From: Crocosphaera subtropica ATCC 51142 | GTDB taxonomy: Bacteria > Cyanobacteriota > Cyanobacteriia > Cyanobacteriales > Microcystaceae | DNA length: 32,000 nt | Direction: 5' to 3' | Assembly (NCBI RefSeq): GCF_000017845.1 | Contig: NC_010546.1 | Coordinates: 2,700,001 to 2,732,000, forward strand | Shown: positions 4,402 to 18,728 of the stretch, piece after piece | Numbering within the stretch: the first letter of the stretch is position 1 | How the letters are laid out: each line of letters opens with the position of its first letter | Notes under the pieces: generated by a model | What the model saw: only the letters and a program-made list of their open reading frames with translations | What the model was told of the DNA's origin: nothing | Databases searched by the model: none | Translations under genes and position numbers: made by a program

Positions 4402-5412
4402 ATGTCACAAGTTTCACCCCATTTACCGTTTAATCCTTTAAGTCGTCGCCAAATTTTACAAGGGTCATTAACCTTGTTAGGACTGGGTTTGGCAGGAGGA
4501 ACGATAGGATTAAGACATTTATTGAATCAAGTTAATTCTACTGTTAAAATTCCTGAAATTGAACTGAATAATAATCCCATTTTAGACAATCCGTTTAATC
4601 CCATGACCATCCTTAGAGAGTTTGATTATGGTACAGTTAAACAGGAAAAGGGGCAACGGATTCGGGAATTTGAAGTGACGGCAAAAAGTAGTTTATTGCA
4701 TCTTAATAGTACCTTAAATTTTATTACTTGGAATCTTAACGATCGTGTTCCTGGCCCCACGTTAAGAGCAAAAGAAGGGGAAAAAATCCGCATTATTTTT
4801 CATAACGAAGACGGTCATTCCCATACCCTACATTTTCATGGGACACATCCATCAGAAATGGACGGAGTAACCCCTATTCGTCACGGAAAAACTGCTACTT
4901 ATGAATTTGAAGCTAAACCCTTCGGAGTGCATCTTTATCATTGTCATGTTGCTCCAGTTACTCGCCACATTAGTAAAGGGTTATATGGTATGTTTATTGT
5001 TGATCCGCCTTCCCCTCGTCCCTCGGCTGATGAAATGGTTATGGTATTAGGGGGATACGATATAAATAATCAACAAAAAAATGATGTTTATGCCTTTAAT
5101 GGCATACCTAATTATTATCGAGATTATCCCATTCCTATCTATCAGAATCAATTAATTCGACTCTATATTTTGAATATGATTGAGTTTGATCCAGTGGCAA
5201 CCTTTCATATTCATGGCAATATGTTTAAAGTGTATCGTACCGGTCGCAGTTTAACCCCAGATGAAGAAACTGATATGATTACAATGGGAACGGCAGAACG
5301 TCATATTTTAGAATTTTCTTATCAGTATCCTGGGGAATTTATGTTTCATCCTCACCAAGATATGATAGCTGAATATGGATGTTTAGGTAAATTTAAGGTT
5401 TTGGAAAGCTAA
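4402..5412 (+). CDS. Tat-exported two-domain cupredoxin / multicopper oxidase, NirK-like
   Basis: Tat motif SRRQILQGSLTLLGLGLAGG. Copper-ligand-like motifs: HTLHFHG; YHCHVAPVTRHISKGLYGM (Cys-His...His...Met spacing as in type-1/type-2 Cu sites of NirK); HIHG; FHPHQDM. The ATG is 2 nt after the feoA stop. Confidence 0.75.
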   Translation: MSQVSPHLPFNPLSRRQILQGSLTLLGLGLAGGTIGLRHLLNQVNSTVKIPEIELNNNPILDNPFNPMTILREFDYGTVKQEKGQRIREFEVTAKSSLLHLNSTLNFITWNLNDRVPGPTLRAKEGEKIRIIFHNEDGHSHTLHFHGTHPSEMDGVTPIRHGKTATYEFEAKPFGVHLYHCHVAPVTRHISKGLYGMFIVDPPSPRPSADEMVMVLGGYDINNQQKNDVYAFNGIPNYYRDYPIPIYQNQLIRLYILNMIEFDPVATFHIHGNMFKVYRTGRSLTPDEETDMITMGTAERHILEFSYQYPGEFMFHPHQDMIAEYGCLGKFKVLES

Positions 5413-5467: not shown

Positions 5468-6235
5468 ATGAAAAAAATAAGTTATTTATCTTTTCTTTTT
5501 TTAGTCCCTTTTGCTGTTACTTTGACCAGTTGTAGCACTCCCTCAGAAAATAAAGATACTACTCAAACTTCTGCCCCAGAAGTTGTTGAAACAAAAACAG
5601 AAGAGGGAGACACAGACTATTTAACCAGTTTAGGGTTAATGAAAGGTCATTTGATGGTAGCTAAAGACTTAATGGAACAAGGAAAATATGAAGAAGCAGA
5701 ACCCCATGTTGGCCATCCTGTTGAAGAGTTATATGGCACTATTGAACCTGAACTCAGTAAACGCAATGTTACTGATTTTAAAATGACCTTAAATCAGTTT
5801 CATGATGGTATTAAAACCAATCCTAAATCCGAAAAAATGAAGGAATTATATGAAAATTCCATGACAGCGATAGATCAGGCGATCGCAGCCGTTCCCACAG
5901 AAAAATTACAATCTCCTGAAACGGTTTTGCCTGTGATTAACGGACTTTTAGCTACCGCAAATGCAGAATATCAAGCAGCGATCGCCAACAACAAATTTGT
6001 AGAATTAATCGAATATCAAGATTCCATGGGATTTGTTGCTTATGCAGAGGAAATCTATCAACCCATTGCTGACACCATGAGTCAACAATATCCCGAAAAA
6101 CACGAAGTGATCACCACAAGTTTAGCAGAATTAAAAACAGCTTGGCCCTCGGTTAATGCACCAGAAACTCCAGTGATGTCCCCTGAAAAAGTCAATGAAT
6201 TAGTGACAAAAATCCAAGAAAGTAGTACACTATAA
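5468..6235 (+). CDS. lipoprotein of unknown function (all-helical; HxxE-containing)
   Basis: AAGGAG Shine-Dalgarno 6 nt upstream. Signal plus lipobox MKKISYLSFLFLVPFAVTLTSC. The mature part is Glu/Lys-rich and helical, with HVGHPVEE. Confidence 0.7.
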   Translation: MKKISYLSFLFLVPFAVTLTSCSTPSENKDTTQTSAPEVVETKTEEGDTDYLTSLGLMKGHLMVAKDLMEQGKYEEAEPHVGHPVEELYGTIEPELSKRNVTDFKMTLNQFHDGIKTNPKSEKMKELYENSMTAIDQAIAAVPTEKLQSPETVLPVINGLLATANAEYQAAIANNKFVELIEYQDSMGFVAYAEEIYQPIADTMSQQYPEKHEVITTSLAELKTAWPSVNAPETPVMSPEKVNELVTKIQESSTL

Positions 6236-7434: not shown

Positions 7435-7776
7435 ATGTTTACTATTCCAGCACCCTTCAAAAATAGATCAGAAGTTTCTGACCTCAAAGAACGCCTTGAC
7501 TGGGGCGAACCCGCCTTAACCATCATTGACGTTAGAGATCGAGAAGCTTTTAATCAGAGTCATATTACTGGCGCTGTTTCTCTTCCTATGGATGAATTAG
7601 TCAATAGAGCCTTAAATAACTTTGAACTGATTCGTGACATTTACATTTACGGCGCAACAGAAAAGGAAACAGCCTTAGGGGTTACCAAACTTCGCCTTGC
7701 TGGATATAAAAAGGTCGCTGAATTAGTTGGCGGTTTAAATGCTTGGAAAGCTTCTGGTTATCCCGTTGAAGGATAA
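7435..7776 (+). CDS. single-domain rhodanese-homology protein lacking the catalytic cysteine
   Basis: LTIIDVRDREAFNQSHITGAVSLP ... IYIYGATEKETA ... GGLNAWKASGYPVE has the rhodanese fold pattern. The whole 113-aa protein contains no Cys. Confidence 0.8.
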   Translation: MFTIPAPFKNRSEVSDLKERLDWGEPALTIIDVRDREAFNQSHITGAVSLPMDELVNRALNNFELIRDIYIYGATEKETALGVTKLRLAGYKKVAELVGGLNAWKASGYPVEG

Positions 7777-7802: not shown

Positions 7803-7835
7803 CTACCTCAGATAATCCGTCTGGGGTAGGTTTTT
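7803..7835 (+). terminator. rho-independent terminator after the rhodanese gene
   Basis: Stem CTACCTCAGA / TCTGGGGTAG (10 bp including one G-U), 7-nt loop, then G plus TTTTT. Confidence 0.55.
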
Positions 7836-7853
7836 GTTGCGGGAACTAATTTT

Positions 7854-7884
7854 CTGAGGGGTGCGTAGAATTTGCCCAGCTATA
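7854..7884 (+). repeat. left copy of 31-bp imperfect direct repeat (pseudo 3' end of larB)
   Basis: CTGAGGGGTGCGTAGAATTTGCCCAGCTATA versus 10957..10987 CTGAGCGGTGCGTAAAATTTGCCCTGCTAAA: 27 of 31 identical by hand alignment. On the minus strand it reads IAGQILRTPQ, compared with ILAGQILRTAQ at the real larB C-terminus. Confidence 0.55.
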
Positions 7885-7894
7885 CCGCTATGCG

Positions 7895-7919
7895 AAAGGC
7901 AAAAGGCAAAAGGCAAAAG
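7895..7919. repeat. heptamer tandem repeat (AAAAGGC x3 plus partials), STRR-like
   Basis: gAAAGGC AAAAGGC AAAAGGC AAAAG, read directly; immediately inside the left islet boundary. Confidence 0.6.
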
Positions 7920-8011
7920 TAGGCCAGAAAAGAGTTTCAGGGGTTGTGAATGTCCTAACAAAAATGCGTAGTGCTATAAAATCATTGTTTTCAAGTAGGT
8001 TAGCCAATGTT

Positions 8012-8037
8012 CACCCTACACTTTTGTGTTTAGGGTG
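8012..8037 (-). terminator. possible terminator hairpin downstream of the 891-aa gene
   Basis: CACCCTA(A)ACAC-aaaa-GTGTAGGGTG on the minus strand, 45 nt after the stop at 8082. There is no clear U-tract. Confidence 0.3.
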
Positions 8038-8081
8038 GTAAGGTTCACTCTATCTTAAATTTGATTGAGTTAAATAATATC

Positions 8082-10757
8082 TTATAAAGTTTGTCTCGTT
8101 TTAATTTGTTTTATAATGGTGTTTGTGCATGGTCTAAGGGCAGCCTTCTCATTATCTAAGGCCACAACAGGATTATAAGAACTAGTGTATCCTGCCAGTA
8201 AATCTGATGGCAAAGTCACTCTAATGTTTTGACCATTTTTATCAGTTAAAACCTCACTTGTCTTAGGATCGATCAGATATTGAGGCATTATAATAAATAC
8301 TCCTTTTCGTGTTTTTTTCCCCATAAACAGTCCTAGTTCAAAAATGACATTATCTCTGGCTACTTTTTCCTCTCGGCCTCTTGAGAGCCTATCATCATCA
8401 GGAGCTAAAATAAATATCCCAAAATCATATTTATTGACAACATCTTCTAAAGATTCTAGGGGTGTTTGCAGTCCAAATGCCCCAAAACTATCACTATCTT
8501 TCCATAATACAGGATGAATATTTGGGTCTTCAGCTAAAAGTTGAACAACAGTATTAGCAATATTTAGATACTCTGAAGACGAACCAATAAAAACTTTAGG
8601 GGGTATTTGTGACATTGTTTTTCGTGCTGATGATTTTGTTCCCTTTCCCAATGATATATCAAGGTGGAGGAATTTCGCAAGCTGATTCAATTGTAAATCC
8701 TCTTGAATAATTATGTGTTCTAAATTCTTGCCAATTTGTATTACAGCATCGGAATGCACTTGTATTAAACTTTCTTTAATTAATACTAAGGCTTCACTTT
8801 CTTCCTTTTTTGTAAGTCTATATGATTTATAAGAAATCTCTGATATTTTAGGATCTTTTTTGCCCTTTGGTAATTGCTTCCAAAAATGTATAGCATAATC
8901 CTTTGCTTTTTCTAGCAACTCATTTTTTGTACTACCTATACTTTTATTATTACTATGTTTGAGTATCTCCCTAAAAGGTATAAATAAACCACTGAAAGAA
9001 GTTTTAGTTCTTGTGATTTTTTCCTTTTCATCTAACAATTCATTAAAAACTTGGTCAGACATAGCAATAGCATTTAGCCAAGCGTCTAAAGCATAATTAC
9101 CCATAAGACCTTCCACAGTTCCCCACTCAGAGTAAAATCCACCATCTAATTTAGGAAGTTTAACTGAATGCTCACGAAATAAGTCTTGAGCATTTTTAGG
9201 TTTATTTTTATATTCCTTCGCATTCAATCGATATAATAGGCCTAATGTAGTAACATTCGTTGCATTATAGTCTTTCTTAACGACAGCTTTTGCTAGATCA
9301 ATTGCTAAGTTTTTAAATTCTCTTCTTTTCTGTGATGTTAAATTTTTCTCTTCGTCTACTTTATAAAAAAAATATTTGGACAAAGTATTCCATTCTGTGA
9401 GTTTTTGAGGCTCACTATCTTTAAAAACGTCAAAAGTATTTTCGAGTAATTCTGAATAAAGATCAAGAATGAAAATACGGAATATATTTCTATGTTCTTC
9501 CAATATTTCTAAAGAGATTTTTGCAATTAGAGGATGACGAGTTAAAACAGAACTCCCTGCATAAGAACTAGATAGCAATGGAATTTCTTGTCCTAAGTAT
9601 TCCAAAATGTCTATCTGAAGCTCTCTAATTTTACAATTAAATATTTTGGCTAAAGTCCCTTGATAAAGAATGTCTTTTTCCTCTGCATGAATAGCAGCAA
9701 TATAGGCAAAAACTTCGAGCAATTTTCTTGGATGTTCTTTATCATTAATTATGATAGGAGTCTTATAAAGTTTTGAACATAAGTCATATAGTCGATTTTT
9801 TAATTCTTGAGTCCCGTAAAGAACTGCAAGAACTCCTCCAAATAAAGTTCTATCTTCCATTGATTCAGATACTTTTCCTTGTTCACGATTAGCCGCATTT
9901 AAAAATTTTTCTGCTAGATGATTAATGGTTTCCTTACTAATATTATCATTACTTTCTATTCCTTGTATTTCTAGTCCTTTGGGAAGATACTCTATCCAGT
10001 TTTCTACGATTTTTATCGCATCATAATTAGATAAACCCTCAATTCGATAAGGATGAGCAAAATATCCTGGATATTGTGACCAATACTGACGTTGGGCTAA
10101 TTTAAAGTCTATAGTGCGACAACAGAATAAGAAACGAAAACATACATTTTTATCTTTTTTTTCTAGCTCTAGGTAATCAATAACTTTTACAATTTCTTCA
10201 AAAATTTGTTCTGCATGATCGGAAACAATAATCACATTCTTTTTCCCTCTATTATCGTGATTTTTATCTTTATCTTCAATGATATAATCTACTAATTTAA
10301 TTAAAGATTTAGAAGTTGATGGAGGTGTAGCAATATTGGATTCTTGTCGCCAATAACCTCTCCAATCTCTGTCACCAGACCTTTTGCGAAGTAAAAGCTC
10401 AACAGATTGCATCAACACTGTTGTTTTTCCCTCTCCTGTTGCCCCTGTAATCCATTTAACATTTACTCTCTCTCTGCTTTCAGATTCTATAATGTCATTA
10501 ACAATGTTCTCAACAATTTCTCTTGATGGAATACGTAGAGAAGTGATTTCCAACCAATCGGGTTTATACCCTTGAAAATAACTAATAATCCTGTCATCTA
10601 AATATTTTTTGTAATCTTCTTCAAATTCTTTATAATCTTTTTTATAATCCTTTTTATAATCTTTTTTGTCATCTAGTAGGACGTTCTTTAAACTTTGATA
10701 TGTTATTTTAGTCCAGTCTTGTGACCAGTTTAGGTTTTCTCCTACATTATTCTCCAT
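8082..10757 (-). CDS. 891-aa P-loop NTPase (STAND-like) with C-terminal TIR-like domain (PF10137 / CAP12-Pycsar-effector type); candidate anti-phage protein
   Basis: Walker A GATGEGKT is at aa 105-112 (nt 10422..10445, verified by back-translation). Walker-B-like NVIIVSD ends at D180. The region aa ~230-710 is helical. In aa ~721-865, KVFIGSSSEY...YDFGIFILAPDD...ARDNVIFELGLFMGKKTRKGVFII...LPSDLAG-like closely follows the pattern of the 'nucleotide-binding protein containing TIR-like domain' family. E807 (nt 8337..8339) sits in the FELG motif. Confidence 0.8.
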   Translation of the reverse strand: MENNVGENLNWSQDWTKITYQSLKNVLLDDKKDYKKDYKKDYKEFEEDYKKYLDDRIISYFQGYKPDWLEITSLRIPSREIVENIVNDIIESESRERVNVKWITGATGEGKTTVLMQSVELLLRKRSGDRDWRGYWRQESNIATPPSTSKSLIKLVDYIIEDKDKNHDNRGKKNVIIVSDHAEQIFEEIVKVIDYLELEKKDKNVCFRFLFCCRTIDFKLAQRQYWSQYPGYFAHPYRIEGLSNYDAIKIVENWIEYLPKGLEIQGIESNDNISKETINHLAEKFLNAANREQGKVSESMEDRTLFGGVLAVLYGTQELKNRLYDLCSKLYKTPIIINDKEHPRKLLEVFAYIAAIHAEEKDILYQGTLAKIFNCKIRELQIDILEYLGQEIPLLSSSYAGSSVLTRHPLIAKISLEILEEHRNIFRIFILDLYSELLENTFDVFKDSEPQKLTEWNTLSKYFFYKVDEEKNLTSQKRREFKNLAIDLAKAVVKKDYNATNVTTLGLLYRLNAKEYKNKPKNAQDLFREHSVKLPKLDGGFYSEWGTVEGLMGNYALDAWLNAIAMSDQVFNELLDEKEKITRTKTSFSGLFIPFREILKHSNNKSIGSTKNELLEKAKDYAIHFWKQLPKGKKDPKISEISYKSYRLTKKEESEALVLIKESLIQVHSDAVIQIGKNLEHIIIQEDLQLNQLAKFLHLDISLGKGTKSSARKTMSQIPPKVFIGSSSEYLNIANTVVQLLAEDPNIHPVLWKDSDSFGAFGLQTPLESLEDVVNKYDFGIFILAPDDDRLSRGREEKVARDNVIFELGLFMGKKTRKGVFIIMPQYLIDPKTSEVLTDKNGQNIRVTLPSDLLAGYTSSYNPVVALDNEKAALRPCTNTIIKQIKTRQTL

Positions 10758-10941
10758 TCTAATAGATTTAGATATTATGGTTTATAAAAATTAATACCTA
10801 ACACTTTTCAGTTTCGGTTACTAAAGTATAGTTTATCACATAGAGTACAATGGCTAGTTTAGTAGGTTGGATAGAAAAACGAAACCCAAAAATACAGAGA
10901 ACTAGCCTCAAAATTGTCCTTGAATACAGTAGGTTATTGAA

Positions 10942-11712
10942 TTAAGAATTTAGTCGCTGAGCGGTGCGTAAAATTTGCCCTGCTAAAATAGCTGCTCCAA
11001 AACCATTATCAATATTAACCACACCAATTCCCGTTGCACAGGAATTTAACATCGTTAATAAAGGGGCAACTCCTCCGAAGCTGGTTCCATAACCTACACT
11101 GGTAGGGACACCAATGACTGGACAATCCACCATACCAGCTACCACACTGGGTAAGGCTCCTTCCATACCAGCTACCACAATAATTACATCTGCTTGACTC
11201 AATAAATTTCGATGACTCAACAAGCGATGAATACCAGCAACCCCCACATCCCAAAGGCGTTGAGTTTCAAAGCCACAGAATTGAGCCGTCACCGCTGCTT
11301 CCTCAGCCACCGGTAAATCCGCCGTACCTGCCGTTAGGATCGAAATGACTCCTGACCCCTGAGAAGGCAGTTTGCCAGTTTGTAGGACGCAAATACGGGC
11401 AGTGGGATAGTAAATGAGAGATGGGATCTCCCCTTCGAGTTGTTCTGCGATCGCTTTTTCAATACGAGTAGCCATGACCACAGGAGAGTGGCGAGCCATA
11501 GTCGTCATAATTTGTATAATTTGTTCTGGGGTTTTCCCTGGTCCCCAAATGACTTCAGGAAACCCTGTTCTCAGATGACGATGGTGATCAACTTTAGCAA
11601 AGTCTGCCACCGGTTCAAAGTTGAAATGTTTCAGCTTTTCGAGGGCAAGATCGGGGCTGATTTCGCCTGTGGCGATAGCATTTAAAAGTTCTTGCAGCGC
11701 GTCAGGGTTCAT
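10942..11712 (-). CDS. larB: LarB / CpmA family (PurE-like) nickel-pincer cofactor biosynthesis protein
   Basis: The N-terminal helical part (DLALEKLKHFNFE..DFAKVDHHRHLRTGFPEVIWGPGKT) is followed by a PurE-like half (VISILTAGTADLPVAEEA...IIVVAGMEGALPSVVAGM...VIGVPTSVGYG). Confidence 0.8.
   Translation of the reverse strand: MNPDALQELLNAIATGEISPDLALEKLKHFNFEPVADFAKVDHHRHLRTGFPEVIWGPGKTPEQIIQIMTTMARHSPVVMATRIEKAIAEQLEGEIPSLIYYPTARICVLQTGKLPSQGSGVISILTAGTADLPVAEEAAVTAQFCGFETQRLWDVGVAGIHRLLSHRNLLSQADVIIVVAGMEGALPSVVAGMVDCPVIGVPTSVGYGTSFGGVAPLLTMLNSCATGIGVVNIDNGFGAAILAGQILRTAQRLNS
10957..10987 (+). repeat. right copy of 31-bp imperfect direct repeat (inside the last 15 codons of larB)
   Basis: See the left copy at 7854..7884: 27 of 31 identity, same orientation, same reading frame relative to the encoded peptide. 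Confidence 0.55.
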
Positions 11713-15144: not shown

Positions 15145-17325
15145 TTAAATATTAATGCTTTGAGGAATATTGGTCGGGAGTAAACATTCGTAAGGAAATA
15201 AACGCTCACTACTTTGATTGCGTTGATGAATAATCGTATGAGCTTGGTTAAGTTTTCGATGAAAGGTGTCTAAGGCAGTTTGAAGGGGTTGAGAATTAGA
15301 AAAAGCTGAAGAAGAATAATGTCCTAACTGGGTATAGTAAACTGAGCCTAATAAATAGAGAATATTAATTTGACTTTGGGCTTGAGATAAAGAGGGTAAA
15401 CCATCAAGAAAACTTTGGGTTTCCTTAACATGGGTAGGAGGAGGTGAATAACGGGCTAGAGGGAATCCCGGTACATACGTCATTAAGGTTTTTTGAGGAA
15501 AGTTAACCGCAGCGTGTTGTGCGCTAGCAGTAAAAATGAGGGTGGAGAGGACTTGACTTAAATAATCTTTGGTGTTGATATGACCAAGAGAATCTTCACC
15601 AAAATTAGATAATCTTCCCCCATTAATCGAAGCTAAGGTGGTTGCCCAATGTTGTAAGGCTTGATCAGAGGCAACGGCAGCATCATGAGTGTAGTAAATA
15701 GAAACATAATCCTTGACCCAGGTATGAATAGCATCCCAAATTAACTGGCCATCATCTCGGTAGGGATAGATAGGTAAAGTATGGGGGTTATCAACCCTAC
15801 GATTCACTAAATTTTGCGGAAAATTAATGGCGTTGAAATTGAAGAGGTAACTCTGAGTACCTTGACTGCTCAAGGATTGATCACTTCCAATACTAGAAGC
15901 TAACAGTGAATCAACGGTTCCTCCTGGAGCCACTAAAAAAGCATGGGCCCCGTAATTAATGACCACAGTTCCTTCTAAATGGGGAATCAACAAATTCCTG
16001 AGAGGATGCTCCTCTGGTAAGTTATATGTAGGAACAGCAAAAGCTTCAACCACTAAATGGGTTCGACCCAAATGGGAAATCAATTCATGATAATTACAAT
16101 CTGCCATCTGTACAATATTTTTGGCACTCATCCAAGGTTCCCCTTGGCTATCAGTATCTAAGGGAGTAAAAGTTGTCCATTGCTCACTCATCGCTGTCTT
16201 TCGATAAGTAATGGCCACTGGAAATAAACAACGGGTCGCATTGGCTTCTGGAGGAACGGCAAAAAAAGCGATGGGAGCGCAAATATACTTCTGTTGAACT
16301 AGCTCTTGATTAATGTAATTCCCGTTCACCAAGCTGTTCAAGATTCCATAATCAGAAACATACAGTCTTTGAGACTCTATCACCTCAGCTAGAGAATCAA
16401 CAACTCCAAATTTAGCAGCGATCGCACTGTACTGATCTGGAGATACTGGACAAGACCCATGTTGTTGGTCAAACCCTTGCAGTACCAAAGGGTTAGCTCC
16501 AGCCACTTGTAAATAAGCAAAAATGCGATCGTCTCTAAAAACATCAGCAATGAGAGGCTTTTCAATGATTTGATACAAGCGATTGTAGTCATCAAGGGTC
16601 AAAGACTCAGGGGACTGAGCTAACTCAGGTTGGGGAACATCAGCGATTTCTGCCATTTTTGTGGCATATTTGAGAATATTTTGTAGACTCACAATGATAG
16701 AAGTCTCGGTTGATCTTTGACGAAATAGTTTCGCTATTTTTTCATCAAAGTCAAGCAATTGATTGCTTAGAAGTTCTATTAACCCTCTTTTTTCATGAAT
16801 TGAGTTAAATGGCTGATAGTTTTCTTCCAGTTGAGAGTCTAAGTTAAATTTTTGGTCAAGTTGTCTCAAATTGATTTCTAAGGTTTTAACACAAGCTTCA
16901 AGCTTATTCTGGTTTTCTGACTCTTCAAAATCGGCTTCAATTGAATCTAAATTATTACTAATCTCAGAGAAATTTTGTTTAAATATTGAGACTGACTCCT
17001 CATTTTTCTCAAGATAGTCATTAATGATAGTAATCAGAACCCTATAAATAACTTTAACAACCCAAATTAGATTGGGAAATGAACCTTTAGGGAAGTTAGG
17101 GAGAGGAATCCCTAATATTTTTTCTATCACTTCACTTTCAGGAACGTTAGTAATAGATAAAGGCGGAAGATAACTATAGTTATATTTATAACTGTCGTTA
17201 GAAAAATAACGCTGTTGGATATATAAACCTAATAAAATTATTGCTAATTTTAGGGGAGATAAGGATTTTTTCCTATCGGATAAGATCCCTAAAGCTTGTT
17301 TATTTTCATCTTGATTCATCGTCAT
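15145..17325 (-). CDS. iron lipoxygenase with a non-PLAT helical N-terminal extension
   Basis: Iron-ligand motifs: HELISHLGRTHLV (H413 at nt 16087..16089, H418 at nt 16072..16074; verified), HAAVNFPQ, and the C-terminal IPQSINI ending in Ile. These correspond to soybean-type HQLMSHWLNTH / HAAVNFGQ / PNSISI. Confidence 0.9.
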   Translation of the reverse strand: MTMNQDENKQALGILSDRKKSLSPLKLAIILLGLYIQQRYFSNDSYKYNYSYLPPLSITNVPESEVIEKILGIPLPNFPKGSFPNLIWVVKVIYRVLITIINDYLEKNEESVSIFKQNFSEISNNLDSIEADFEESENQNKLEACVKTLEINLRQLDQKFNLDSQLEENYQPFNSIHEKRGLIELLSNQLLDFDEKIAKLFRQRSTETSIIVSLQNILKYATKMAEIADVPQPELAQSPESLTLDDYNRLYQIIEKPLIADVFRDDRIFAYLQVAGANPLVLQGFDQQHGSCPVSPDQYSAIAAKFGVVDSLAEVIESQRLYVSDYGILNSLVNGNYINQELVQQKYICAPIAFFAVPPEANATRCLFPVAITYRKTAMSEQWTTFTPLDTDSQGEPWMSAKNIVQMADCNYHELISHLGRTHLVVEAFAVPTYNLPEEHPLRNLLIPHLEGTVVINYGAHAFLVAPGGTVDSLLASSIGSDQSLSSQGTQSYLFNFNAINFPQNLVNRRVDNPHTLPIYPYRDDGQLIWDAIHTWVKDYVSIYYTHDAAVASDQALQHWATTLASINGGRLSNFGEDSLGHINTKDYLSQVLSTLIFTASAQHAAVNFPQKTLMTYVPGFPLARYSPPPTHVKETQSFLDGLPSLSQAQSQINILYLLGSVYYTQLGHYSSSAFSNSQPLQTALDTFHRKLNQAHTIIHQRNQSSERLFPYECLLPTNIPQSINI

Positions 17326-17348: not shown

Positions 17349-18728
17349 TTAGTGGCTAGTTAGTCCCAATTGAGAGCGACGTACTTTTCCCACAATCCTG
17401 ATGACATCGGTTAAGGTTTCTAGAGCTAAGTCTTTTCCTGGACAGATTCGTCCAGCATGGCGATCGCCCACGGAATGAAATCCCATGTGATAGGGGCAAA
17501 GATTTTCCCGTTGTGGTTGAAATTCGTAGGGAGTTGCTCCCCAGACGGTTTCTGTGAGCATTCCTAAAATCATGGGGATAAGAATAATAGTGCCTGGGGG
17601 AAAGGTTCTTGTTTTCCCTGCGATTGTGGTTGTAAAAGAGTCCGTTGCCACTCGGTGGGAGGCACTAACGGGTGTGAATAAACGACCACATTCTAATAAA
17701 AAAAGCTTAATACTTGAAGGGTTATCGAGATCAAGCCGATCCCAATAAGCTGTGACATCAATTTCACTGGTTTTAAGACCTTTGTATGGGGGAAGACTTT
17801 GATAACCCATAGCCGTTCGTCCTAGATGTAGAGGGCCTTGCAACGCAGCAATACTCATCAAGGCTACCATCAGTTTGGCTAATTCCCGTCGGGTCATGTT
17901 ATTGTACTTGGGATTATTTTCTTGGAAATTAGCAAGAACAGGAGATTTTTCATAAATCGTCCCCACCGCTTCGATCATTCCAGGAATTTCACTCCATCCC
18001 AAGAGATTAAACCTTTCTAAAATGCGACTAGCAGCGAAATAGTGTAAGGTTCCTCGTCTGGTATAGTGAAAATTGGTAAGGGCGGCAATACTACTGTCAT
18101 CATGAGGATCAATGGCAAAGATAACGTAGTGAAGGTATCTGATCAAAAAGCTCATTAAGCCCCGATTCTCATCAATAAAAAACCCTTCTAATCGATTTTC
18201 ACTAGCTAATTCTCTATAATCAGCCCCCAAGGTTTCTAATAACTCTCGTCCTACGGGATCATGTTGACGGACTTTCATCTCATCCGTAAAAAAGTAATCT
18301 TCAACACAGTGACGAAAGGCATCATGATCATTTCCTTCTGTCCCCGTATCTGAGAGGGAAATAAGAAACACATTCCGCCCTCCTATATCAATTTGTGGGC
18401 AGTGACGGGCAGACAGGGGAGATATACCCAAATACCAAGTCCGTGCTTGAGGAGAGGTCAGATTAGTTTCTATGGTTTTAAAGTCTGCTAAGACTACCTG
18501 TCCAGCACAACAAAACGTTGATCCCAATTTACGCTTTTTCATATCTAGGTAAACGGGATAGCTAAACAGGAAGTTTGCCAGAAATCCCTCTAAAAAACCG
18601 ATAATCGGCAATAAAGTTAAGCTAACAAAATTTTGAGGATTCTCTATAGCCCAAGCCTGAAAACGATTAAGAATTCTGTCTAACAGATTTGGTTTCAGGG
18701 ACACAGAAGATTGATTAGTGGAGTTCAT
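17349..18728 (-). CDS. CYP74-clan-like cytochrome P450 (candidate allene oxide synthase / hydroperoxide lyase / divinyl ether synthase)
   Basis: Heme-thiolate loop FHSVGDRHAGRICPGKDLAL (Cys429 = nt 17442..17444). The C-x-G-K-D pattern and the lengthened loop are as in plant CYP74 (..NKQCAGKDFV). ExxR is present in LLECGRLFTPV. N-terminal PIIGFLEGF...KRKLGSTF resembles CYP74 P..G...D...KY.STVFR. The stop is 23 nt upstream of the lipoxygenase start. Confidence 0.7.
   Translation of the reverse strand: MNSTNQSSVSLKPNLLDRILNRFQAWAIENPQNFVSLTLLPIIGFLEGFLANFLFSYPVYLDMKKRKLGSTFCCAGQVVLADFKTIETNLTSPQARTWYLGISPLSARHCPQIDIGGRNVFLISLSDTGTEGNDHDAFRHCVEDYFFTDEMKVRQHDPVGRELLETLGADYRELASENRLEGFFIDENRGLMSFLIRYLHYVIFAIDPHDDSSIAALTNFHYTRRGTLHYFAASRILERFNLLGWSEIPGMIEAVGTIYEKSPVLANFQENNPKYNNMTRRELAKLMVALMSIAALQGPLHLGRTAMGYQSLPPYKGLKTSEIDVTAYWDRLDLDNPSSIKLFLLECGRLFTPVSASHRVATDSFTTTIAGKTRTFPPGTIILIPMILGMLTETVWGATPYEFQPQRENLCPYHMGFHSVGDRHAGRICPGKDLALETLTDVIRIVGKVRRSQLGLTSH

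Follow-up and report, generated by a model that had tools for sequence, protein, structure and literature searches.

Receptors of the STAND (signal transduction ATPase with numerous domains)/NLR (NOD-like receptor) class in bacteria, plants, and animals are understood to consist of an N-terminal effector and a C-terminal sensor, the effectors being clustered when the NTPase oligomerizes. The nSTAND3 clade provides the NTPase of Avs5, a proven defense protein that depletes nicotinamide adenine dinucleotide (NAD) through a SIR2 domain (bioRxiv 10.1101/2025.07.08.663546), and the NADase of SfSTING is switched on only once filament packing lets the neighboring TIR domain complete the active site (PMC9402430). 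We analyzed a 32,000-nucleotide stretch of the Crocosphaera subtropica ATCC 51142 genome (NC_010546.1, positions 2,700,001 to 2,732,000; hereafter, the window), in which one gene encodes a protein of 891 amino acids (aa) that, judging from its sequence, is a member of the nSTAND5 clade of STAND proteins carrying a TIR domain of the PF10137 type. Set against the normal order of its family, only this protein appears to lack an N-terminal effector and yet to continue into a C-terminal one. Its gene lies on foreign, insertion-polymorphic DNA flanked by repeats of the larB end. We assign a probability of roughly 60% to the reading that it is a horizontally acquired, single-gene, Avs-like antiviral nSTAND5 receptor, in which the C-terminal CAP12/Pycsar-type TIR NADase would be the death effector. 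The gene and its domains were assigned as follows.

8082..10757, minus strand: complete open reading frame (ORF) of 891 aa with an ATG start, encoding an nSTAND5 STAND NTPase, a putative helical sensor, and a C-terminal CAP12-type TIR domain (ORF listing, Pfam, and PADLOC).
10584..10757, minus strand: N-terminal 58 aa without an effector domain, containing the pre-NTPase linker motif DWTKIT (GWxxI in the family) and a (KKDY)3 tract at 10632-10667 (alignment and translation check).
10086..10583, minus strand: nSTAND_NTPase5 P-loop domain, aa 59-224 (Pfam PF25199).
10422-10445, minus strand: Walker A motif GATGEGKT (K111), within the NTPase domain.
10209-10235, minus strand: Walker B motif VIIVSDHAE (D180, with the unusual H181), within the NTPase domain.
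9468..10085, minus strand: helical and winged-helix part of the STAND module, ~aa 225-430 (AlphaFold2 and Foldseek).
9534-9545, minus strand: family-invariant LTRH motif (R407, H408), within the winged-helix part.
8664..9467, minus strand: helical, TPR-like putative sensor region, ~aa 431-698 (family profile matches to TPR proteins, alignment).
8607..8663, minus strand: linker, aa 699-717 (HLDISLGKGTKSSARKTMSQ); the translation of relatives ends about here.
8094..8606, minus strand: CAP12/Pycsar-type TIR domain, aa 718-888 (Pfam PF10137, PADLOC, AlphaFold2, and Foldseek).
8337-8339, minus strand: codon of the putative catalytic Glu, E807 (FELG), within the TIR domain.

Both SRR26036488 and SRR26036489, which are separate Logan assemblies, contained an identical 891-aa ORF, and, therefore, the fusion is not an assembly artefact of the window.

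The NTPase domain matched PF25199 (nSTAND_NTPase5) over aa 59-224 with 106.6 bits against a cutoff of 34 (E 1.3e-30), and a hidden Markov model (HMM) of the family core aligned with aa ~41-698 at E 6e-145. Although an initial annotation of this DNA, made from its letters alone, described the protein as an orphan P-loop NTPase, its NTPase clearly belongs to a family that is large and already named. An exhaustive phmmer search over 1.84 billion cluster representatives gave 5021 matches, the best of them only 32% identical; those covering aa ~45-605 were proteins of ~600-1240 aa, in which ~350 residues usually precede the homologous region. The family motifs, which we derived by aligning 23 effector-less relatives with the window protein and by a census over 190 members of the family, were as follows: GxxGEGK[ST]T, with K111 in 187/190 members; hhhhSD, with D180 in 187/190; FLLxxRDxDW, with the sensor-1-like R214 in 175/190; and LTRH, with R407 in 190/190 and H408 in 186/190. 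The His of the last motif probably corresponds to the MHD-like, nucleotide-contacting His of the winged-helix domain. Every family motif was retained in the window protein, including the terminal L.F..LA..L (aa 688-697), with which the putative sensor region closes as LQLNQLAKFL. The Walker A (GATGEGKT, K111) and Walker B (D180) sequences were found at the residues initially given for them, and the low-complexity (KKDY)n tract described at the N-terminus consisted of three copies at aa 31-42, a 12-nt tandem repeat at 10629-10667.

In a search against the PDB, the family profile matched TPR proteins at profile positions ~365-465, downstream of the NTPase module, together with generic P-loop matches only, and no solved structure related in sequence to the NTPase module was found. 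nSTAND3 and nSTAND5 are related Pfam families (one relative, P0120, matched both), and the window protein itself had no match to nSTAND3 in Pfam. The AlphaFold2 model of the full-length protein had a mean predicted local distance difference test score (pLDDT) of 72, with ~90 for aa 50-500 (~85-95 over ~aa 225-430). Its best PDB fold matches in Foldseek were human SAMD9 (E 5e-10), followed by TRIP13, AAA+ proteins of the ORC/Cdc6 type, Apaf-1, Dark, and the plant NLR NRC3. The nucleotide-binding, helical, and winged-helix domains (NBD-HD-WHD) followed by helical repeats were recognized in the model, the sensor part of which was of low confidence. The region between the NTPase and the TIR domain was predicted to be all-helical (DSSP on the AlphaFold2 model), in agreement with the long helical, repeat-like stretch described initially.

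The C-terminal domain, initially described as TIR-like of the PF10137/CAP12 type, was assigned consistently by Pfam, PADLOC, PDB matches, and structure modeling. CAP12-PCTIR_TIR (PF10137) matched aa 721-824 with 82.7 bits against a cutoff of 24.7 (E 2.7e-23), the PADLOC models of CBASS and Pycsar TIR effectors covered aa 718-888 at E-values down to 3e-29, and sequence matches in the PDB were Cap12 TIR-STING (9lmq, 7un8) and PycTIR (8jsj), with E 2e-12 to 1e-11. A separate AlphaFold2 model of aa 700-891 (pLDDT 89) matched TIR-STING in Foldseek with a query-normalized TM-score (TMq) of 0.60, 30% identity, and E 7e-10; more distant matches were nucleoside 2'-deoxyribosyltransferases, DNPH1, ThsB, and the TIR domains of SARM1 and RPS4. 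The Pfam and structural checks proposed with the initial annotation, therefore, came out as strong matches to both an NTPase (PF25199) and a TIR domain (PF10137), as a STAND/NLR-like full-length model (SAMD9, Apaf-1, NRC3), and as a TIR-STING-like C-terminal model. In SfSTING, F6, S10, W33, R78, N80, and E84 are described as the NAD+ pocket, with E84 as the catalytic residue (PMC9402430); F723, S727, W752, R801, N803, and E807 of the window protein aligned with these six residues, respectively. Ten residues (F723, S726, S727, W752, R801, D802, N803, E807, G809, and G813) were invariant in the 116 closest PF10137 proteins, and the conservation of the FELG glutamate, E807, pointed out at the outset, was borne out by both comparisons.

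TIR chemistry is diverse, and the domain might not deplete NAD+: it may produce a signaling nucleotide for an effector encoded elsewhere, in the manner of Thoeris or plant TIRs, or hydrolyze another nucleotide or nucleoside, as do 2'-deoxyribosyltransferase- and DNPH1-like enzymes. That nucleoside 2'-deoxyribosyltransferases, DNPH1, and ThsB are the next structural neighbors after TIR-STING is consistent with such a role, which we nevertheless consider unlikely: the closest relatives in sequence and structure, Cap12 and PycTIR, are NAD+-depleting terminal effectors (PMC9402430), the residues of the SfSTING NAD pocket are conserved, and no partner effector was found on the 3.1-kb insert or nearby.

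The order of these two modules was compared across the family in a scan of GTDB species representatives, which yielded 72 relative loci from many phyla. In nearly all of them, the family core HMM left 0-50 residues uncovered before the end of the ORF, and a 193-residue tail past the core was found in the window protein alone; the long tails of L059 (152 aa) and P0120 (301 aa) had no assigned domain. In the 72 genomic relatives and ~125 database representatives, extra domains were N-terminal. The N-terminal extensions of 62 relatives were assigned by Pfam to Metallophos (41), SIR2_2 (4), caspase (3), and DUF4062 (3), with single cases of HD-CE, trypsin, NNH5, and FAD oxidoreductase; judged by these assignments, the effector swapping of nSTAND5 is the pattern typical of defense STANDs. 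The unusual domain order remarked on in the initial annotation is, thus, a feature of this protein among its genomic relatives.

A second case of the fusion was not encountered. The TIR HMM detected no TIR domain of this type among the ORFs lying up to 10 kb from the 72 loci, and none of the 150 best matches in the exhaustive phmmer search covered both halves; a true two-module relative would have scored above all of these. PF25199 was absent from the 120 best TIR relatives, and the JGI metagenomes and IMG/VR held no close relative of the full protein and one TIR-only match. Coverage by these searches is incomplete, since the window protein is itself absent from the collection of 15 billion proteins, which accounts for the lack of a match to itself. 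A literature search, within a limited searchable library, returned no precedent for a STAND protein with a C-terminal TIR domain. An apparent N-terminal TIR domain in one relative (P0088) was rejected, the match being weak, local, and confined to the Metallophos domain of that protein, and the N-terminal DUF4062 domains of relatives showed no pairwise similarity to the TIR domain of the window protein.

The junction reads ...LQLNQLAKFLHLDISLGKGTKSSARKT-M715-SQIPPKVFIGSS, and it is at about this point that the relatives end. Among free TIR proteins, some begin a few residues before the FIGSS strand, and Met715 stands five residues before the first TIR strand (8607-8633); no convincing ribosome-binding site was found upstream of Met715. 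Met715 may be the relic start of a once-separate TIR gene, or an internal start, and the fusion may plausibly have originated when two adjoining genes came to be read through as one. In three actinobacteria, an effector-less nSTAND5 gene was directly preceded by a small ORF that could be a separately encoded, undescribed effector:

L039:2824-3696, L043:9033-9908, and L055:9198-9872, same strand as the nSTAND5 gene: upstream ORFs of 225-292 aa without a Pfam match.

The fusion in the window may also be a non-functional or decaying accident, in which translation of an effector-less nSTAND5 core ran on into a TIR gene downstream once its stop codon was lost and the product is inert or permanently off. 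The architecture is unique, Met715 followed by KVFIGSS looks as a separate TIR protein would at its start, the protein has His181 and Phe218 at two near-invariant positions of the family (see below), and no integrase is left on the insert. On the other hand, the ORF of 891 codons is intact at 32% GC, where stop codons arise easily, and the protein has kept every nucleotide-binding residue as well as the ten invariant residues of the TIR domain. The GC content is similarly low in both halves of the gene (0.31 and 0.35), suggesting that the fusion predates the transfer. We, therefore, regard an accident as improbable.

Further evidence came from the surroundings of the gene, where the 3' end of larB occurs twice.

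7883..10928, no strand: inserted DNA, ~3.05 kb plus one repeat copy, GC 0.32, with this gene as its sole cargo (BLASTN and alignment against empty sites).
10929..10985, no strand: attL-like repeat, the present larB 3' end, encoding ...AGQILRTAQRLNS and the stop codon (direct repeat, four-way alignment).
7826..7882, no strand: attR-like repeat, the displaced original larB 3' end, encoding ...AGQILRTPQKISSRNKNLPQTDYLR and the stop codon on the minus strand (direct repeat).
10942..11712, minus strand: larB (nickel-pincer cofactor biosynthesis), the insertion target (Pfam AIRC).
7435..7776, plus strand: rhodanese gene, 3.17 kb from larB here and 28-64 nt away, convergent, in relatives.

The gene was bracketed by imperfect direct repeats of 57 nt (7826-7882 and 10929-10985; 74% identity). 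The LarB product was 93% identical to LarB of Crocosphaera sp., and the attR-like copy, in the spacer downstream of the STAND gene, matched the C-terminus of 268-aa Crocosphaera LarB variants (P0270, P0272, and P0278) and was 86% identical to the larB end in a Crocosphaera metagenome-assembled genome (GCA_051439645.1, locus L086). Sites without the insert were reached through the 268-aa LarB variants and P0268. The L086 locus has the convergent rhodanese gene 28 nt after larB, with DUF4278 and a 124-aa FeMo-co-like gene next, and this gene order is that of the window minus the intervening 3.1 kb; the gap between larB and the rhodanese gene was 54 nt in Crocosphaera sp. Alani8 (L087) and 64 nt in a Logan assembly (L095), the latter being shown at the level of gene order. 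Around four other LarB homologues (P0267, P0269, P0274, and P0279), the neighborhoods differed or the contig ended just after larB, and exact matches to the rhodanese gene sequence were confined to the same organism.

In BLASTN, L086 1386-2152 corresponded to window 11712-10946 and L086 2113-3781 to window 7882-6185, an overlap showing that the window contains two copies of ~40 nt of L086. A four-way alignment set the limits of the repeat from TAGC[A/T]GGGCAAATT to AACCTAC, and the candidate insertion-site sequence is TAGCWGGGCAAATTYTACGCACC...AACCTAC. In the same alignment, the larB-side copy was nearer to the Alani8-type larB end than to the native type, suggesting that the cassette carries a mimic of the larB end from a related lineage; the attL-like repeat is supplied by, or converted to, the copy of the insert. 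As a consequence of the insertion, LarB ends in ...RTAQRLNS (256 aa), whereas the native form of 268 aa ends in ...ISSRNKNLPQTDY....

Besides an overlapping antisense ORF, one ORF of at least 60 aa was present on the insert, and no integrase or recombinase was found on it; nor were a tRNA gene or an Rfam family found in or near it, and promoter and terminator scans revealed nothing distinctive. Within the insert, at 7895-7919 and adjoining the attR-like repeat, the heptamer AAAGGCA (plus strand; TTTGCCT when read on the minus strand) is repeated perfectly in tandem, x3.6; it may be a cyanobacterial repeat of the STRR (short tandemly repeated repetitive) type or part of a recombination site.

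The gene had a GC content of 0.318 and a GC content at third codon positions of 0.21, the GC content being 0.405 in the remainder of the window and 0.38-0.47 in neighboring genes, as expected from the remark in the initial annotation that it is much more AT-rich than they are. The insertion, which lies partly outside the segment described there (8,082 to 10,757), is a new result, and it disposes of the case named there as a refutation, namely that of a syntenic core gene, because it is absent from three close relatives. The same polymorphism bears on the possibility that the host uses the protein as a signal-transduction ATPase with a housekeeping role and no connection to conflict. Metabolic genes on both sides and the co-oriented position downstream of larB are in keeping with such a role, but the gene is absent from the same site in the three relatives, its composition is foreign, and the protein combines a TIR domain of the NADase type with a family that has swappable toxic effectors. 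This explanation is highly improbable and, because of the insertion polymorphism, effectively refuted.

By analogy, the protein most likely works like an NAD-depleting STAND of the Avs5 type. In its resting state, it would be a nucleotide-bound, auto-inhibited monomer, as in Avs, NLR, and SAMD9-like STANDs. A ligand derived from the infection, most likely a phage protein, would bind to the TPR-like helices of aa ~431-698, and this would free the NBD-HD-WHD module, in which the motifs for nucleotide binding are present, to bind ATP through K111, D180, R214, and H408 and to oligomerize. The oligomer would cluster the C-terminal TIR domains, which, with their conserved pocket and E807, may complete each other's active sites, and the resulting depletion of NAD+ would halt the infected cell (abortive infection). 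The gene itself arrived on a cargo-only cassette of 3.1 kb that integrated at the 3' end of larB.

Several points weigh against this antiviral reading. We infer phage defense, NADase activity, the ligand, and the oligomer. The second acid of Walker B is His181, at a position with D/E in 150/190 family members (79%) and H in 2/190, and Phe218 replaces a near-invariant Trp (Trp in 189/190, Phe in 1/190), and thus the NTPase cycle or ATP hydrolysis may be altered. The pLDDT of the AlphaFold2 model falls below 50 for aa 515-610 and 671-716, so that the sensor fold and the position of the TIR domain relative to the NTPase are not fixed by the model. As a singleton, the architecture would be compatible with an accident of evolution as well, and some effector-less nSTAND5 genes stand alone among housekeeping genes (L020 and L069, with WecG, carboxyl transferase, and DUF72), suggesting that the core may have a role needing no fused effector. 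No model of PADLOC 2.0.0, including those of Avs1-5, matched the NTPase or sensor part at E<=1. Enrichment of the nSTAND5 family in defense islands is not demonstrated: a PADLOC census, taken with no baseline, of 130 neighbors of 38 relatives gave scattered hits to mads, HEC-06, WYL, PDC-S03, BrxH, and DpdF, with none dominant. In favor of the antiviral reading, five distant nSTAND5 relatives (L090-L094, 22-26% identity) were found on predicted viral contigs in IMG/VR.

A module of conflict or regulated death need not be aimed at phages: it may be an addiction module of the cassette, or a death switch triggered by stress or kin in a colony-forming cyanobacterium. The first descriptions of STAND-effector systems presented them as general systems of conflict, similar to apoptosis and enriched among prokaryotes that are multicellular or social (PMC7159879, PMC8195603), which speaks for this possibility, as does the persistence of the cassette without mobility genes; however, in the literature consulted, every experimentally characterized bacterial STAND with a death effector senses phage proteins (PMC13581612), and no sign of an antitoxin or regulator was found at the locus. 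We consider this quite unlikely, and retain the antiviral STAND as the preferred reading.

A more specific proposal, which we put forward only tentatively, is that an effector hung from the ligand-binding end of the sensor represents a different geometry of STAND activation, similar to that of NLRP1/CARD8 or SARM1 and delivered as an integrase-less, one-gene cassette targeting larB in marine diazotrophic cyanobacteria. The TIR domains would then be assembled by sensor-proximal contacts, or the sensor C-terminus would fold back onto the NTPase. Avs5 has been modeled with AlphaFold, and the models suggest a repeat domain folded back onto the ATPase (bioRxiv 10.1101/2025.07.08.663546), and the NBD of Avs7 is contacted by a C-terminal helix that is conserved; if the conserved C-terminal motif of the nSTAND5 family were to behave in this way, a C-terminal fusion might, speculatively, sit near the exit of N-terminal effectors.

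In this respect, an NTPase-sensor core with a TIR domain after the sensor offers a natural test of whether the effector position matters, and the same layout tests whether the oligomer interface is near the C-terminus of the sensor. At 2.7 kb, the gene is compact; it has defined mutational targets (K111, H408, and E807), and has close relatives of normal order. It is also a defense-type gene that differs among lineages of Crocosphaera, a marine nitrogen fixer of ecological importance, and the precisely defined insertion site makes it trackable in metagenomes.

The neighboring genes encode LarB, GcvH, a rhodanese, a DUF4278 protein, RimK, an aspartoacylase-like protein, a lipoxygenase, and the phycocyanin operon. 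Among the genes of the window, no cyclase, partner gene, or other defense gene was found near this one, and the initial description of a solitary gene amid housekeeping genes, therefore, stands. Some of the other genes in the window deserve a record of their own. A lipoxygenase of 726 aa, uncommon in bacteria, adjoins a protein without a Pfam match, and a multicopper oxidase adjoins a predicted lipoprotein:

15145-17325, minus strand: lipoxygenase, 726 aa.
17349-18728, minus strand: 459-aa protein without a Pfam match.
4402-5412: two-domain multicopper oxidase.
5468-6235, plus strand: predicted lipoprotein of 255 aa (signal peptide followed by Cys), without a Pfam match.

A typical nSTAND5 (PF25199) member consists of a metallophosphoesterase, the nSTAND5 NTPase, and a helical sensor in ~940 aa. 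The window protein shares with its nSTAND5 relatives the NTPase-helical core (aa ~45-698, 25-35% identity) and the family motifs; whereas these relatives carry their variable domain at the N-terminus and nearly all stop at the core end, it has no N-terminal domain and a 193-aa extension bearing the TIR domain. The likeness to Avs5 (AVAST type 5; SIR2-nSTAND3-TPR) lies in a single STAND protein with a helical-repeat sensor and an effector that destroys NAD, an activity that is predicted for the window protein, and some nSTAND5 members also carry SIR2_2. In contrast to Avs5, the effector here is a TIR rather than a SIR2 domain and is C-terminal rather than N-terminal. Within the wider group of SAMD9-like STANDs (Avs6, Avs9, and human SAMD9), SAMD9 was the best PDB fold match. 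The canonical Avs order (N-terminal effector, NTPase, and C-terminal sensor) is not followed, with 58 domain-free aa before the NTPase and an effector-type domain after the sensor. In the PADLOC check proposed initially, the TIR-effector models matched aa 718-888, but no model matched the NTPase part, and thus no named system was assigned, which accords with the initial view that the architecture is not that of a named defense system.

Cap12 (TIR-STING, CBASS) and PycTIR (Pycsar) belong to the same PF10137 subfamily as the TIR domain of the window protein, with ~30% identity, a TMq of 0.60, the NAD-pocket residues, and the catalytic Glu in common. They differ in that the window protein has neither a cyclic-nucleotide sensor (STING, SAVED, or a domain binding cyclic nucleotide monophosphates) nor a cyclase, its upstream module being a STAND NTPase. 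Since the match to the NCBIfam equivalog models of Cap12 (61-62 bits) was also far below their cutoff of 450, the protein, as far as such models and its domains indicate, is neither Cap12 nor PycTIR. Models of the PADLOC candidate PDC-S35 matched aa 636-831 (E 3e-10 to 4e-8), but this match was carried by the TIR domain alone, and the same models matched all of the free-standing PF10137 proteins tested; PDC-S35 proteins are ~230-280 aa and have no STAND module.

Outside bacteria, NLRP1 carries its CARD after NACHT-LRR-FIIND, and SARM1 carries a TIR NADase after ARM-SAM that is activated by oligomeric packing. NLRP1/CARD8 and SARM1 are the nearest analogy for an effector placed after the sensor, although this is an analogy only: the SARM1 TIR domain is a distant fold match to that of the window protein, there is no sequence relation beyond the TIR and STAND folds, and neither the proteolysis of NLRP1 nor the sensing of nicotinamide mononucleotide and NAD by SARM1 has a counterpart. 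The insert resembles an integrative genomic island in its flanking repeats and empty sites, and differs in having no integrase of its own. The NTPase family and the TIR type of the protein are, thus, known, and what is new relative to the described systems is the inverted order of a STAND-TIR protein on a precisely delimited insertion of one gene.

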